Shown here piece by piece: positions 23,788 to 29,093 of a stretch of DNA of 64,000 nt. The stretch's first letter is position 1, and each line of letters begins with the position of its first letter. Below the pieces are notes generated by a model. The model had not been told where the DNA came from and did no database searches. It worked only from the letters and a program-made list of their open reading frames with translations. Source of the stretch: a phage; the NCBI GenBank assembly GCA_019326865.1, contig GCA_019326865.1_4101.1. The stretch is one strand, 5' to 3'. A program made the translations under genes and the position numbers.

Positions 23788-24234
23788 ATGGATGTTGATA
23801 AAATAGCAAATCATTTTGAAATTGCATTATCTTGTAATTTTGATACCAAAAGCGTAGAATCACCTAAAGAGTATATACATATTAGCTGTTCTTATTCACA
23901 TTCATGTATAGTCCATATTGAAAAGACCTATGACCGTACTGAGTTATCGTTTTACAACCCACTCATCAGAACAACATCAGTTATGTTAATATATAATACA
24001 ATATCTGACATTATTGAAATTATTTCAAATTATACTGATGTAACTTGTACAACTATATATAATGCAAGTACATGCATAACAGAAGAAGGATATTTCCAGG
24101 AGTCACTTATTCAAAATTTTAATTATGATTATAAAGATTTATGTTATATAGTCTTAAGTTTTGAAAAAATAAACGAAATGGTTTTGTCATTATTTGACAT
24201 AATCGAACAAAATCCAAAGGTAATCAAATGCTAA
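23788..24234 (+). CDS. EExFFQ-motif family protein
   Basis: 148 aa; EEGYFQESLIQNF. Confidence 0.55.
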   Translation: MDVDKIANHFEIALSCNFDTKSVESPKEYIHISCSYSHSCIVHIEKTYDRTELSFYNPLIRTTSVMLIYNTISDIIEIISNYTDVTCTTIYNASTCITEEGYFQESLIQNFNYDYKDLCYIVLSFEKINEMVLSLFDIIEQNPKVIKC

Positions 24235-24668
24235 ATCCAATAAAGTTTTTTAATTTATTAGGTATTACATCTATACCGGATTTAACAAGTGAAACAAACG
24301 TATATCGTGATGTTGGAAATGTATCATTGGAATATGATACATTTGACTTTAAATGTTACATAACATATAACATTGAATCCTATACTAAAAAATCATCATA
24401 CATTTTTGTGTTCATATATAATGATTATAGTGGTAATACACTGAATGATGTTCATATTGACACATTTGAAATATGTGGTAATATTATATCAGATGAATCA
24501 TCATCTACATTTGATTTGGAATTAAACAGTACTGAAGAGTCACTTTTTCAGTTGAGTACTATAAGTGACACTATATTAACACCAGATGACATTGAGAAAT
24601 TTAAAGAACATCTTGACGCAGTTCGTGAGATGTTCTATAATCATTATCCAGAAGTGGAGTTCAAATAA
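24228..24668 (+). CDS. EExFFQ-motif family protein
   Basis: 146 aa; TEESLFQLSTISDT. Confidence 0.55.
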   Translation: MLNPIKFFNLLGITSIPDLTSETNVYRDVGNVSLEYDTFDFKCYITYNIESYTKKSSYIFVFIYNDYSGNTLNDVHIDTFEICGNIISDESSSTFDLELNSTEESLFQLSTISDTILTPDDIEKFKEHLDAVREMFYNHYPEVEFK

Positions 24669-24682
24669 CTAAAGGTAATAAG

Positions 24683-24943
24683 ATGACTAAAGTAGTTCGT
24701 AGACGCCATATGATGAACATGGATGAATTTCGCACATTTGACAAATATCGTACTATGTTTCGTATGCTTTCACAGGGCCGCCCAATTGTCATTGTAACAG
24801 AGAATTACATGTCACCTGAGATTATGTTTGGTAATTATGAAAAGGTCTTCATGCTGTACGTGAAGCGTGGATTACTTACAATCAAGACATTAGCTGAAGC
24901 AACTGATGAAGATATGGATGGTGATAATACCTTTACCATGTGA
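24683..24943 (+). CDS. hypothetical protein
   Basis: ORF 86 aa. Confidence 0.45.
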   Translation: MTKVVRRRHMMNMDEFRTFDKYRTMFRMLSQGRPIVIVTENYMSPEIMFGNYEKVFMLYVKRGLLTIKTLAEATDEDMDGDNTFTM

Positions 24944-24982
24944 GGAAATATATGTCTGAAAAACCAAAAGAACCTTTAGATC

Positions 24983-25273
24983 GTGATGATGATTTTTATG
25001 ACGAACGATATGGAGATGATAATGAGTGAACATAGTGCGGTGCTTAAAAAGATTTTAAAGGAAATTGATGGTGAGTTTAATGTCACAGAAGAAGAATATC
25101 AGCATTGGAAGAAAGATTTCGAACAACTAACCGAGTATGATAAAGTGTTCAATATGATTGGTGTAATTAGCCAGTACTTACTTGGTGGAGGACGTGCAAG
25201 TGCTTCAATTCTGGCATCTGCAATCATCTGCACATCACGATGGTGTGATGAAAAAAGTTTGGAAGATTTCTAA
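24983..25273 (+). CDS. hypothetical protein (start uncertain; alternative ATG near 25017)
   Basis: ORF 96 aa. Confidence 0.4.
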   Translation: MMMIFMTNDMEMIMSEHSAVLKKILKEIDGEFNVTEEEYQHWKKDFEQLTEYDKVFNMIGVISQYLLGGGRASASILASAIICTSRWCDEKSLEDF

Positions 25274-25325
25274 ATAAGATGCTATAATATATTATAGTAC
25301 CTTAACAATATAAAAAGGATTTTAT

Positions 25326-27221
25326 ATGAAACCTATCCGAGTACTATCTCTTTTTAATGGGATGAGTGTAGGATACATGGCATTAAAAGATGCTGGTATC
25401 CCTGTTGAAAAATATTATTCATCCGAAATTGACAAATTTGCTATAGCTGAATCCCAAGCTAACTTCCCCGATATCATCCAATTGGGTGATGTAACTAGAT
25501 GGAAAGAATGGGATATCGAATGGGACAAGATAGATCTACTGATGGGTGGTTTTCCATGCTTCCCAGCAGGAACTATGATAATGACAAATAAAGGTCATAA
25601 AGATATAAAAGATATAAAAATTGGTGATATGGTTCTTACACACACTGGACAGTACCAAAAAGTATTGAGTACTTGTGTAAAACAAGCACCAACTAGAATT
25701 ATATCAGGTCAGGGCCATTTACCTATTGAATGTACCGATAATCACCCATTTTATTCGAGAGTTTTGGGTAAAAAATGGAATAATGCCAAACGTCAATATG
25801 ATAGAATAGCAAGCGATGCAGAATGGGTATATGCATCAGAATTAACACCAAATCATTTACTATGTAATGTAAAATCATCGTATGTTCGTGAATCATCATT
25901 GAGAGATGAAAAATTTTGGTATTTTATGGGTAGATTTGCAGGAGATGGGTGGGTATCAAAAGTTAAACGTCAAAAAAGAAAAAATAGTTATGTATATAAA
26001 GTGTTAATGTGTTGTGCACATGATGAATTTGATGAATTGGTTGAATGTTTTGATGGTTTAAAAATGAATTATAATTATACCAAAGAACGCACTTCATATA
26101 AATTTTATATTACATCAAAAACTTTACTTGAATTCTGTGAAAAGATGGGGAAAGGTGCTTCTAATAAAATTGTTCATCCTGAATTATGGTCCGAATGTGT
26201 AGAAAATAAAAAAGCTTTTCTTGAAGGGTACATATCGGCTGACGGTCATTACTATGATGGTAAATGGCACATTACATCAACATCATCAAACATGATATTG
26301 GGTATACAGCAATTAGTCATGGACATTTATGGAAGGCATGTGAATATACATAAAGTCACACCGTCACCCACTAAGATTATTGAGGGACGTATAGTAAATC
26401 AAAAACCGTGGTACAGAATAGAATTCACTGAAAATCCACTAAAACATGAAAATGCTTTTTATGATGATGATACGTATGCTTGGGTAAACGGTGTCAAAAA
26501 AAGTATACCTACAAATGAAATAAAAGACGTATATTCATTTGAAGTTGCAGTAGATAACACATATACGGCGAACAATATTGTAGTTCATAACTGTCAAGCG
26601 TGGTCAGTTGCTGGGAAACAAGGCGGTGTGAATGACCCTCGTGGTATGTTATTCCATACAATGGTTGATATTTACCAGCACATAAAAAGTCTCAATCCAG
26701 ACTTGAAAGTACTGTTCGAGAATGTTAAAATGAAAGAAGATTTCAAGCAATACATTAATAGTGTTCTTGAGATGACACCAGTACTGATAAATTCCCAGCA
26801 TTATACGCCTCACTTCAGGCAGAGATATTACTGGTACAGTACTGATAAACTTTTTATACCACCTGCATTATCCAATGCACCTAAACTTCAAGATATTATT
26901 GAAGATGGTTGGTACACTGACAGAACCGCTTCGTACTGTATAGATGCTAACTATTTTAAGGGTGGTGATTGTAACCAGTACTTTAATAAATCAAGAAGAC
27001 AAATTGTTTTCAAAGAACCTGATATCGATAGGGATTTCCTTCTTGAACATGGTAAGCGAAATGTGGACTATCGTCATTTAACAGTACAAGAGTGTTGCAT
27101 GTTGCAAGGAATTGATGTAAACTACTTCAAAGTTAGTAGTTCAACACAAGCATACAAAATGCTTGGGAATGGATGGACTATGCCAGTTATATCACACTTA
27201 CTACGAGATATATTCTTTTGA
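25326..27221 (+). CDS. DNA (cytosine-5)-methyltransferase precursor interrupted by an intein
   Basis: Extein motifs: I LFNGMSVG, IV GGFP|CQAWSVAGK (split by insert), VI FENV, VIII QRYYW, IX RHLTVQECCMLQGI, X LGNGWTMPV; extein about 286 aa. Confidence 0.8.
   Translation: MKPIRVLSLFNGMSVGYMALKDAGIPVEKYYSSEIDKFAIAESQANFPDIIQLGDVTRWKEWDIEWDKIDLLMGGFPCFPAGTMIMTNKGHKDIKDIKIGDMVLTHTGQYQKVLSTCVKQAPTRIISGQGHLPIECTDNHPFYSRVLGKKWNNAKRQYDRIASDAEWVYASELTPNHLLCNVKSSYVRESSLRDEKFWYFMGRFAGDGWVSKVKRQKRKNSYVYKVLMCCAHDEFDELVECFDGLKMNYNYTKERTSYKFYITSKTLLEFCEKMGKGASNKIVHPELWSECVENKKAFLEGYISADGHYYDGKWHITSTSSNMILGIQQLVMDIYGRHVNIHKVTPSPTKIIEGRIVNQKPWYRIEFTENPLKHENAFYDDDTYAWVNGVKKSIPTNEIKDVYSFEVAVDNTYTANNIVVHNCQAWSVAGKQGGVNDPRGMLFHTMVDIYQHIKSLNPDLKVLFENVKMKEDFKQYINSVLEMTPVLINSQHYTPHFRQRYYWYSTDKLFIPPALSNAPKLQDIIEDGWYTDRTASYCIDANYFKGGDCNQYFNKSRRQIVFKEPDIDRDFLLEHGKRNVDYRHLTVQECCMLQGIDVNYFKVSSSTQAYKMLGNGWTMPVISHLLRDIFF
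25557..26591 (+). mobile_element. intein (about 345 aa) with LAGLIDADG homing-endonuclease motifs, inserted before catalytic Cys of PCQ motif
   Basis: Begins CFPAGTMIMT..IGDMVLTHTG (block A), ..TDNHPFY (block B), LAGLIDADG-like FMGRFAGDGWV and FLEGYISADGHYY, ends NNIVVHN followed by C (+1 Cys of CQAW). Confidence 0.75.
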
Positions 27222-27703
27222 ACATAAACAAACACCAAACTTATATAAAACGTGCAGAAAGTTTCAAACGGCTGGCTGTAAAATCTGAATTAGAATTTAA
27301 TTTGTATTATCCTAATATTGGTGATGAGGTATTTTATTGCTCTCATTCAAAGAATGGAACTTTACTTAAATCGGGTAAAGGAACTATTGTTGATATGACC
27401 GCAAATTTCAGAGGTAAACTTAATGTAATGTACAAAGTACAAGATTCAAGAACTGAGTGTATTCATGAAGTGATGCATAACATACCTGCATATCCAAAAG
27501 ATTTTGTTCAGCTAATATCTCGAAGGGAGAAACCTATGTTCTATTGTGGTTACGACAAATTAACCAAACAAATTATTCCTAATACTATGGGAAAATTTAA
27601 AAGTGATGTAAAATCTGAACTAGAAAAGAAATTTGGTACATCATGGGAAACTGAAAACGAGTTTATCGAAATTCGTTTAATTGAAGTTACTATTCTTGAT
27701 TAA
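27173..27703 (+). CDS. hypothetical protein (start uncertain, overlaps MTase 3' end)
   Basis: ORF 176 aa. Confidence 0.45.
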   Translation: MDYASYITLTTRYILLNINKHQTYIKRAESFKRLAVKSELEFNLYYPNIGDEVFYCSHSKNGTLLKSGKGTIVDMTANFRGKLNVMYKVQDSRTECIHEVMHNIPAYPKDFVQLISRREKPMFYCGYDKLTKQIIPNTMGKFKSDVKSELEKKFGTSWETENEFIEIRLIEVTILD

Positions 27704-27707
27704 TTAT

Positions 27708-27733
27708 AAATCCACGCAATGCGTGGATTTTTC
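27708..27733 (+). terminator. rho-independent terminator
   Basis: AAATCCACGC aat GCGTGGATTT followed by TTC. Confidence 0.55.
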
Positions 27734-27745
27734 ATAGGTGTATAT

Positions 27746-28261
27746 ATGTCAATTCCTTATGTTAAAATTATTAACAATATTCTTGATTCTTGGGAAGATG
27801 TCATTATTGGCAAAAAGAAACCTTTTCCTGTTCATGCACTAACTGGAAGACTACAATTCAGAATGTCAAACAAAACTGAAACGTTTAATAATCATGATAT
27901 TTGTATTACATTAAAAACACCTGTTAGTATTGTAATTAAAAAAAATAAAGATGATGAATTGTCATTATCTATTGGTCGTGATAAAATCATTTTAAGTAAT
28001 TTGTCTGAAGAAGAATTCTTTCAAAGAAGTACTATCATCGACATGAAAGATTTCACATATGAATCATTAGTAGAACTCAATACACGTTTTGATGATATTC
28101 AGGAACGATTGCGACCAATCCTCCGTAGAGAAGAAGAAGCCTGGATTGAAAGTATGAAGAAGATGCAAGAAATGTTAAAAGAAACTATTAACAATATGGG
28201 TCAATCTATTTTGGACATTGGTAAAACTTTTAAACTCAACTTTTCAAAGGAACGTAAATGA
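27746..28261 (+). CDS. EExFFQ-motif family protein
   Basis: Start moved to ATG 27746 past terminator hairpin; SEEEFFQRSTIIDM. Confidence 0.55.
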   Translation: MSIPYVKIINNILDSWEDVIIGKKKPFPVHALTGRLQFRMSNKTETFNNHDICITLKTPVSIVIKKNKDDELSLSIGRDKIILSNLSEEEFFQRSTIIDMKDFTYESLVELNTRFDDIQERLRPILRREEEAWIESMKKMQEMLKETINNMGQSILDIGKTFKLNFSKERK

Positions 28262-28710
28262 AAATCGATGAACTGATTTATATTTTAGGTAACTTGCATA
28301 AAATATTGTTACATCTCCAAGAGATAAAGAACCTTGGGTATAGCATGTCCAATACTAATAAAACCGCATTTGAATACAACCCAACCACGGGTGGAAATTA
28401 TAATATTGTGTATTGTTATGAAACTGACCCAGACTGCTATCAACTTACGTTATACTTTTATCCAACAAACCCTACCATTGTTCAAGACATATCATCAATA
28501 TCACTTGACCCAGATGGTGAAATGAGTATAGAATATAGCTATGATTCTAAAAAAGAATGTTACGTTGAAGATATGAAAAATATGTTTAACGACGAATATG
28601 TGTTCCAGCTAAGTACTGTACATGATGTTGGAAGTACTAATGGACAATTTTGGAATACATGTTATTATCATATGATTGAAATTTGTAAATTACTAAAAGG
28701 CGATGATTAA
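28258..28710 (+). CDS. EExFFQ-motif family protein
   Basis: 150 aa; NDEYVFQLSTVHDV. Confidence 0.55.
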   Translation: MKIDELIYILGNLHKILLHLQEIKNLGYSMSNTNKTAFEYNPTTGGNYNIVYCYETDPDCYQLTLYFYPTNPTIVQDISSISLDPDGEMSIEYSYDSKKECYVEDMKNMFNDEYVFQLSTVHDVGSTNGQFWNTCYYHMIEICKLLKGDD

Positions 28711-29093
28711 TGAAATACAGCATTGAAGTACATTACACTACTGGTGATACTGAAAATCAATATAACATAGTTAAGACCATTGATGTTCAATGGGATACTA
28801 AAGAGGAAGCAGTTGCTGCTTTACAGTGCCTAAAAGAGCATTGGGTGTTTTATATGAAGCAAGATAATTGCTATACAAAAGAACACGAAACTATCGTTAA
28901 AAATGCTAAACAAAAAGAGTGGTTTGACCCAATTTCACCAGAATATTCATTTTTGGTTAAAGTTGGCGGTGTGACAGTTCCCTTACGTACACCGTGGAAC
29001 GGCTACTTTGAAACTCTTCATAATGCACGAGTTGTCGCTGTTGATAATCCTGAACAAATCGATTTCGATTCATTGGACTGGAAAAAACTATGA
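28710..29093 (+). CDS. hypothetical protein
   Basis: ORF 127 aa. Confidence 0.5.
   Translation: MKYSIEVHYTTGDTENQYNIVKTIDVQWDTKEEAVAALQCLKEHWVFYMKQDNCYTKEHETIVKNAKQKEWFDPISPEYSFLVKVGGVTVPLRTPWNGYFETLHNARVVAVDNPEQIDFDSLDWKKL

Follow-up and report, generated by a model that had tools for sequence, protein, structure and literature searches.

Inteins in phage DNA methylases have so far been described in the N6/N4 methylases of mycobacteriophages (PMC5050341; PMC9957025), among which the DNMT-1 and DNMT-2 genes (e.g., Pacc40 gp60) carry a class-1 LAGLIDADG intein (Kelley et al. 2016, PMC5050341). A C5 methylase has also been tabulated: Supplemental Table 1 of bioRxiv 10.1101/2025.01.02.630785 lists gene 50 of Propionibacterium phage B22 as 'DNA methylase, C-5 (IPR001525), class 1, LAGLIDADG', and that work does not discuss the insertion site, the catalytic Cys, or the proline that precedes the intein (−1 Pro). 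Among Rak2-like jumbo phages, the CBB genome paper (PMC5259590) reports intein domains for one protein only, the large terminase, in Rak2 and K64-1. Here, we analyse a stretch of 64,000 nucleotides (nt), called the window below (NCBI GenBank assembly GCA_019326865.1, contig GCA_019326865.1_4101.1), from an Asteriusvirus (121Q/PBECO4-like) jumbo coliphage. One of its open reading frames (ORFs), at 25326..27221 on the + strand, like the gene features of the window given below, encodes a C5-cytosine DNA methyltransferase of 631 amino acids (aa; plus stop) that is split by a 345-aa insert. We give a probability of roughly 0.88 to the reading that this insert is a class-1 intein with a LAGLIDADG homing endonuclease, lodged between the Pro and the Cys of motif IV of an apparently orphan methyltransferase, excised by protein splicing, and spread by homing.

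Like Pacc40 gp60, the window gene is a methylase split by a class-1 LAGLIDADG intein (27% identity between the two inteins); the mycobacteriophage host, in contrast, is an N6/N4 enzyme (PF01555), and its site, HV/CPLQFD (a slash marks each intein-extein junction), is unrelated to the Pro-Cys motif. B22 gp50 (KX620750) shares the host enzyme family, the architecture, and the insertion point (GGSP/CFVAGT...IVVHN/CQDLSMAG), with inteins 30% identical over their full length, but it comes from an actinophage siphovirus lineage and belongs to another methyltransferase subfamily. An intein directly before the motif-IV Cys is also found in Nyseid, Lana gp71, Erwinia Y3_050, RCS47 Dmt, and 587AP2 (FGFP/C, FSPD/C, GSPP/C, GGTP/C), with 26-31% identity to that of the window and in other methyltransferase subfamilies and hosts. 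Relatives of Y3, such as Yoloswag and pEp_SNUABM_52, contain an intein that is likewise related in sequence. In the accessible literature, we found no publication describing the elements of Nyseid, Lana, Y3, RCS47, or 587AP2 as inteins, and a search made without most subscription journals and InBase returned no paper on an intein at the C5-methyltransferase Pro-Cys motif. Among inteins of solved structure, PI-SceI (the yeast VMA1 intein), TliVMA, PI-PfuI, and PI-PkoII have the same Hint horseshoe, LAGLIDADG endonuclease fold, and class-1 residues (Foldseek E=1e-15 to 7.6e-19), and differ in sequence (11-20% identity) and in host protein (V-ATPase, ribonucleotide reductase, DNA polymerase). At 345 aa, the window intein is compact; the additional region with which PI-SceI recognises DNA is missing from it.

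Anatomy and fold of the insert

The insert (precursor aa 78-422; 25557..26591) starts with CFPAGTMIMT, ends with NNIVVHN, has a predicted mass of 40.0 kDa, and separates Pro77 from the catalytic Cys of motif IV (GGFP/C...HN/CQAWS). The N-extein (aa 1-77; 25326..25556) spans motif I (LFNGMSVG) to the Pro of motif IV (GGFP), ending in LLMGGFP, and positions 1-72 of the Pfam DNA_methylase profile align to precursor aa 4-79. The C-extein (aa 423-631 plus stop; 26592..27221) opens at the catalytic Cys of motif IV (CQAWSVAGK) and continues with motifs VI (FENV), VIII (QRYYW), IX (RHLTVQECCMLQGI), and X (LGNGWTMPV). Splicing in silico yields a protein of 286 aa, with a predicted mass of 33.4 kDa and the junction GGFPCQAWS, in which motifs I, IV (Pro-Cys), VI (ENV), VIII, IX, and X all occur in order. 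PF00145 (DNA_methylase) matches the precursor in three stretches (E=1.3e-28) and the spliced product with E=6.9e-35 (121.4 bits, cut-off 22), and TIGR00675 (dcm) gives 114.4 bits on the spliced product, above its cut-off of 100.65. In the PDB, the spliced extein matches the catalytic domains of DNMT3A/3B over nearly its full length (E~4e-24) and M.HhaI (E=7e-17). The phage methyltransferase is in this respect a compact, 286-aa DNMT3-like enzyme, closer to mammalian DNMT3A/3B than to the bacterial M.HhaI or M.HaeIII (E~1e-16).

The N-terminal splicing (Hint) lobe of the intein (intein aa 1-110; 25557..25886, boundary approximate) contains block A (CFPAGTMIMT; 25557..25586) and block B (TDNHPFY, aa 60-66, with Thr60 and His63; 25734..25754). 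It is followed by the LAGLIDADG homing-endonuclease domain (aa ~111-295; 25887..26441, boundaries approximate), with motif 1 FMGRFAGDGWV at aa 123-133 (Asp130; 25923..25955) and motif 2 FLEGYISADGH at aa 221-231 (Asp229; 26217..26249). The C-terminal splicing lobe (aa ~296-345; 26442..26591), in which the Intein_splicing match runs to aa 345, contains block F (VYSFEVAVDNTYTA; 26529..26570) and block G (NNIVVHN; 26571..26591). The hallmarks of class-1 inteins are all present, i.e., Cys1, the TxxH of block B (TDNH), the terminal His344-Asn345, and the +1 Cys, and the two LAGLIDADG helices are intact, each ending in a catalytic Asp (D130, D229). In a family alignment of 32 relatives, C1, D130, K204, D229, and N345 are invariant, and conservation reaches 90% or more at H63 (block B TxxH) and at the +1 Cys.

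Two profiles score above their curated cut-offs: Hint_2, with 30.6-31.8 bits (30.6 on the insert alone; cut-off 28.4) over intein aa 1-47, and LAGLIDADG_3, with 28.2-30.9 bits (30.9 on the insert alone; cut-off 22.5). The insert alone also has sub-threshold matches to Intein_splicing, Hom_end_hint, Hint, Vint, and Hom_end, and TIGR01443 (intein_Cterm) matches aa 401-423 below its cut-off. By sequence, the insert matches the solved structures of the gp41-1 intein (aligned to intein aa 5-67), the TliVMA intein, and PI-PkoII. AlphaFold2, run on the insert with 31 homologues, gave a confident model, with a predicted local distance difference test score (pLDDT) of 93.4 and a predicted template modelling score (pTM) of 0.90; it is all beta-strand to residue 105 and has the LAGLIDADG helices at 118-130 and 215-229. 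Searched with Foldseek against the PDB, this model matches best the TliVMA intein (7qsu; E=7.6e-19, TM 0.71), then PI-SceI, PI-PfuI, and PI-PkoII, and for its central endonuclease core the matches are I-DmoI (E~1.5e-7) and the corresponding domains of PI-SceI and TliVMA. A Hint fold made of the N- and C-terminal lobes is supported by the Hint_2 score and by the superposition of the model on TliVMA, PI-SceI, and PI-PfuI, and an alpha-beta-beta-alpha-beta-beta-alpha LAGLIDADG core by the LAGLIDADG_3 score and the Foldseek matches. We conclude that the insert belongs to the class-1 inteins and carries a LAGLIDADG endonuclease of the double-motif type. A bacterial intein-like (BIL) domain was considered and rejected, since BIL domains lack both an endonuclease and the +1 nucleophile pattern at a conserved site that is seen here. 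BLASTP and a family hidden Markov model (HMM) detected no further inteins in the 64-kb window.

Empty alleles, selection, and apparent mobility

A megablast search with the gene returned 37 related GenBank phage records, most of which match in two pieces totalling exactly 861 bp. The uninterrupted gene is exemplified by 121Q gp91 (861 bp, 286 aa), whose protein aligns to that of the window with a single clean gap of 345 aa between P77 and C78, and Ecwhy_1 has the same intein-free state (286 aa). The intact target in these two phages reads ...ATGGGTGGTTTCCCA/TGCCAAGCCTGGTCAGTTGC..., and the empty site of 121Q gp91 is ...ATGGGTGGTTTCCCATGCCAAGCCTGGTCAGTTGC.... From the empty alleles, we place the presumed homing site in the last 45 nt of the N-extein (25512..25556) and the first 45 nt of the C-extein (26592..26636), the latter half running on into the co-conversion tract. 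Only 5 of the 37 Asteriusvirus records, TH47, JNE01, A4, UE-S1, and ph0011, have an intein at the site, and it is absent without a scar from the remaining 32. These sister alleles share gene, site, and flanking sequence with the window. Their inteins are 66-67% (TH47, JNE01, A4) or 51-52% (UE-S1, ph0011) identical to that of the window, and the length of the insert varies among alleles by whole codons, from 340 to 346 aa. The closest record to the window is UE-S1 (94% identity over 24 kb); its intein (within L002, 1501-3381) and that of ph0011 have 84-100% identity to the window intein in the splicing blocks and only 20-48% in the endonuclease core. The intein alleles, too, are mosaic, and the pattern points to an exchange of the endonuclease domain, or to recombination of intein alleles with one another, inside a single phage genus. 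This exact allele is missing from the INPHARED 2025 phage set, where the best full-gene match has 79% nucleotide identity. All deposited sister alleles lack an intein annotation, and the word 'intein' has zero counts in the UE-S1 paper. The 631-aa 'DNA cytosine methyltransferase' should thus be re-annotated as a 286-aa enzyme plus a mobile intein, and likewise the proteins of UE-S1, ph0011, TH47, JNE01, and A4.

Large variable regions are known in C5 methyltransferases, and so are methyltransferases fused to nucleases. One could therefore imagine a permanent, lineage-specific insertion that is kept in the mature enzyme as a variable or target-recognition domain or as a fused nuclease of the kind found in some restriction-modification fusions, the more so as none of the six alleles bears an intein annotation in GenBank. 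We find this extremely improbable on five grounds. First, the insert splits the invariant Pro-Cys of motif IV instead of extending the variable region between motifs VIII and IX. Second, it opens with Cys and closes with His-Asn followed by Cys. Third, it has Hint and LAGLIDADG domains and a fold like those of PI-SceI and TliVMA. Fourth, 32 of the 37 relatives lack it without a scar. Fifth, this element recurs at that dipeptide in six or more methyltransferase subfamilies that are unrelated. The Pro-Cys split, the splice-junction residues, the fold, and the scarless empty alleles effectively refute the target-recognition and permanent-fusion reading. A preliminary description of the locus, drawn from the bare sequence, had named a variable or target-recognition region as one outcome that would refute it, and had itself favoured an intein with blocks A and B and two LAGLIDADG motifs, splitting a 631-aa ORF exactly at motif IV before the catalytic Cys. 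On these points it was right: every motif it quoted lies where it was placed, PF00145 and TIGR00675 as well as Hint_2 and LAGLIDADG_3 score above their cut-offs, and the boundaries, the resemblance of the AlphaFold2 model to known inteins, the exact 345-aa gap it expected against an intein-free homologue, and the masses it predicted (about 33 and about 40 kDa, against computed values of 33.4 kDa for the ligated exteins and 40.0 kDa for the insert) all agree.

Removal at the level of RNA is a second alternative. Group I introns with homing endonucleases are frequent in phage genes, e.g., in Lactococcus phage 949 beside its NrdD intein, and LAGLIDADG enzymes occur in introns as well as in inteins. 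For a group I intron with an in-frame LAGLIDADG ORF, however, we would not expect a frame that stays open, without stops, through both junctions in all six alleles, Hint splicing lobes on either side of the endonuclease, junction residues of the protein-splicing type (Cys1, His-Asn, +1 Cys), or insert lengths that differ by whole codons (340-346 aa). On the grounds of frame, domains, junctions, and insert lengths, we consider the chances of this alternative negligible, and retain the intein.

Is the intein still active? Comparisons among the window, TH47, JNE01, and A4 gave ratios of non-synonymous to synonymous substitution rates (dN/dS) of 0.07-0.19 in the N-terminal splicing lobe, 0.10-0.29 in the endonuclease domain, and 0.02-0.17 in the exteins, all of them rough because dS is near or above 1 and close to saturation. 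The exteins are mosaic around the insertion. At nt 241-420 of the spliced coding sequence, the intein-bearing alleles are 0.77-1.00 identical to the window and the intein-free ones diverge (0.67-0.85). TH47 is window-like just 3' of the site (0.95-0.98 at nt 301-420) and 121Q-like farther on (nt 661-780; 0.97-0.98 to 121Q versus 0.62-0.63 to the window), and A4 is window-like at nt 121-300 only (0.95-0.98). Judged from the sequences, the presence in 5 of 37 records and the mosaic tracts fit homing with co-conversion, and the intein looks recently mobile and functional, because mosaic extein tracts flank the inteins, only 5 of 37 records carry one, and dN/dS is low. All stages of a homing cycle can be seen at the Pro-Cys site: full-length inteins, versions with a degraded endonuclease (P0004, 264 aa; P0026, 289 aa), and mini-inteins of 140-149 aa (P0040, P0042, P0043).

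A decaying intein, in which the endonuclease, the splicing activity, or both are dead, and which has made the methyltransferase gene effectively a pseudogene or has become fixed and immobile, is improbable. Several observations could be explained in this way. The methyltransferase looks dispensable, as in the Salmonella phages SD-6 and SD-1 no more than 36-41% of the query finds a match at the locus, which carries annotations for three separate hypothetical proteins; the copy of Mannheimia phage 587AP2 is frameshifted just after the intein; the −1 Pro is an unfavourable context for splicing; P0004 and P0026 show that degraded endonucleases occur at this site; and the endonuclease domain of the window is just 36-84% identical to its closest relatives. 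Yet the ORF is intact over 631 codons, every catalytic residue for splicing and endonuclease activity is kept, dN/dS is well below 1 in the splicing lobe and in the endonuclease domain, and four near-identical copies are found on independent contigs of ~349 kb. The strong purifying selection on the exteins (dN/dS 0.02-0.17) would be unexpected if their product could never form.

The proposed splicing and homing cycle

The anatomy, the empty allele, the fold, residue conservation, purifying selection, the distribution, and the mosaic flanks were computed; the occurrence and rate of splicing and cleavage are what we infer, taking the splicing steps from the established class-1 pathway. For splicing itself, the purifying selection on exteins and intein is indirect support only. 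The 631-aa precursor would be made as one chain and would be inactive as a methyltransferase, with the 40-kDa intein parting Pro77 from the nucleophilic Cys. Cys1 of the intein would perform an N-S acyl shift on the carbonyl of Pro77, the +1 Cys, i.e., the future nucleophile of the methyltransferase, would take over the N-extein by trans-thioesterification, Asn345, aided by His344, would cyclise and release the intein, and an S-N shift would then form the native GGFP-CQAWS bond in the 286-aa, 33-kDa methyltransferase. The freed 40-kDa intein would act as a site-specific endonuclease that, in a co-infection, cuts the uninterrupted allele around ...GGTTTCCCA/TGCCAAGC..., and repair from the intein-bearing copy would spread the intein together with short tracts of flanking extein (homing). 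Since the +1 Cys is the catalytic nucleophile and Pro77 its conserved partner, it is a sound inference that the precursor should be catalytically dead and that methyltransferase activity should therefore depend on splicing.

A number of arguments weigh against this proposal. First, splicing and cleavage are predictions, for this intein as for all the members of the family that we found. Second, prolyl thioesters are sluggish acyl donors. Third, PMC8189919, citing Oeemig et al. (2020), advises against insertion sites near prolines when efficient splicing is sought. Because the −1 Pro is disfavoured in this way and its thioester is a poor donor, splicing could be slow or conditional. Fourth, TIGR01443 and several Hint-type profiles remain under their cut-offs, which we read as divergence rather than absence. 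Fifth, the block F position that is Asp in many inteins is Ser or Asn here (VYSFEV). Sixth, the dN/dS ratios share the roughness of a nearly saturated dS. Finally, ordinary recombination between phages could also produce the mosaic flanks, with no action of an endonuclease. As to the proline, the chief uncertainty of the proposal, its presence at −1 in 136 of 144 relatives suggests, from sequence comparison, that the family copes with it, as an adaptation rather than a failure. Such a family might be of use to intein engineers, because prolines are normally avoided at the junctions.

The insertion site in other phages and the gene neighbourhood

A word-indexed search with the intein found 47 proteins, about 40 of which have the intein directly before a motif-IV-like Cys, in the contexts GGFP/CQAWS, GGSP/CQxFS, FGSP/CQDLS, YSxP/CTDFS, SPD/CTTYS, SPD/CKHFS, and HPP/CTFLT. 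When the exteins of relatives were spliced in silico, five of the six tested matched PF00145, the SPD/C groups included. When 1.84 billion cluster representatives were searched exhaustively with HMMER, 5350 matched at E≤1e-3, of which 1995 reached E≤1e-10 and 662 reached E≤1e-30. Of the best 147, 132 are at xP/C..S, and the best matches have the −1 Pro in 136/144 cases, the +1 Cys in 142/144, and the terminal His-Asn in 139/144. Among deposited phage genomes, tblastn returned 98 records, 42 of them Erwinia records, and the Pro-Cys junction was confirmed in six: B22 gp50, Nyseid, Lana gp71, Erwinia Y3_050, the Dmt of the P1-like RCS47, and Mannheimia phage 587AP2, the last being the broken copy with a frameshift mentioned above. 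Judging from the 662 representatives that reach E≤1e-30, and from the 132 among the best 147 that have the intein at this site, the Pro-Cys of C5 methyltransferases appears to rank among the more frequent insertion sites of inteins in phage sequence space. The preliminary description had suggested that this insertion site was new, which overstated the case, given the related inteins at the same site in many deposited phages and in hundreds of clusters of metagenomic proteins, the 132 of the 147 best metagenomic representatives, and the tabulated B22 gp50. What is new is an unannotated allele of a canonical intein type, at a site abundant in databases and catalogued at least once. It is a textbook example, and our understanding of inteins or of methyltransferases is unchanged by it. 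The site, whose discussion we did not find in the accessible literature, would be a cheap addition to intein catalogues, and the residual interest lies in the size of the insertion-site family, in the −1 Pro, and in an intein at the Pro-Cys motif of a thymidylate synthase.

The latter is found in Aeromonas phage PS1 (MN032614; L014, 781-3039), whose thymidylate synthase has a related intein (27% identity) at LTP/C...HN/CHFSF. It immediately precedes the catalytic Cys of the 'PCH' motif of ThyA, with the same Pro-Cys arrangement and, as in C5 methyltransferases, a nucleophile that attacks pyrimidine C6. Judged by sequence, this may represent extein switching or convergence. A broader and more speculative idea would be that of a very large intein lineage specialised on the Pro-Cys catalytic dipeptides of enzymes that attack pyrimidine C6, with extein switching across at least six C5-methyltransferase subfamilies and possibly to thymidylate synthase (PS1, LTP/CHFSF), efficient splicing after a −1 Pro, a context that defeats the inteins common in engineering, and, since the +1 splice nucleophile is at the same time the catalytic Cys of the methyltransferase, splicing as a possible timing or redox gate on the methylation of phage DNA. 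We regard this whole as rather unlikely.

Other relatives are of interest in their own right. The dmt genes of several P1-like phages (RCS47, FO818745, L012, 2270-5557; OP279344, a P1 isolate; Ro157c2YLVW) contain an intein of ~341 aa at GGTP/C...HN/CQAFSIAG and are annotated only as 'DNA methyltransferase'. The metagenomic protein P0062 (814 aa) has its intein at WENV/C...HN/CGAFSS, after motif VI (ENV) of a C5 methyltransferase, which suggests a second intein site in the family. In Lactococcus phage 949 (L015, 1439-3688), the anaerobic ribonucleotide reductase has a related intein within its RVxGY glycyl-radical motif, at RV/C...KN/CGYLS; two genes farther downstream, past the gene of the reductase activator, lies an annotated group I intron protein. 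Intein sequence also drives misannotation. Several RefSeq mycobacteriophage N6/N4 methylases with an intein are labelled 'anaerobic ribonucleoside reductase large subunit' or 'DNA helicase' (NC_011287 Pacc40 gp60, NC_031262 Brocalys, NC_021538 Job42, and others), and phrog_26446, which bears a ribonucleotide reductase name, matches only the intein part of the window protein (aa 78-434). The reductase and helicase names of the mycobacteriophage proteins look like annotations carried over through shared intein sequence.

The identical 631-aa protein is deposited at NCBI as 'DNA cytosine methyltransferase [Escherichia coli]' (EHU8780973.1, WP_414104126.1), with the intein unannotated and on contigs of about 349 kb. 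A search of the RefSeq complete E. coli genomes for the methyltransferase gene gave no match, so these records must derive from draft assemblies that include phage contigs. A ribosome-binding site, AAGGA (25315..25319), can be read 6 nt before the ATG. A consensus scan found a candidate sigma-70-like promoter, TTGGAA-18 nt-TATAAT with TG (25259..25288), which is a weak lead, as promoter and terminator counts around the methyltransferase gene are no higher than in shuffled sequences. The neighbourhood (23788..29093) consists of small same-strand ORFs without known function that are kept across Asteriusvirus genomes (121Q gp87-95). The methyltransferase looks like an orphan, because no restriction endonuclease partner is apparent in this run. 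The last 49 nt of its gene are overlapped by a downstream ORF (27173..27703; 176 aa, phrog_28599, function unassigned), whose start has been called inconsistently: the annotated homologue in 121Q, gp92 (L001, 2358..2843), begins 4 nt before the methyltransferase stop, and that of UE-S1 is called 80 nt downstream.

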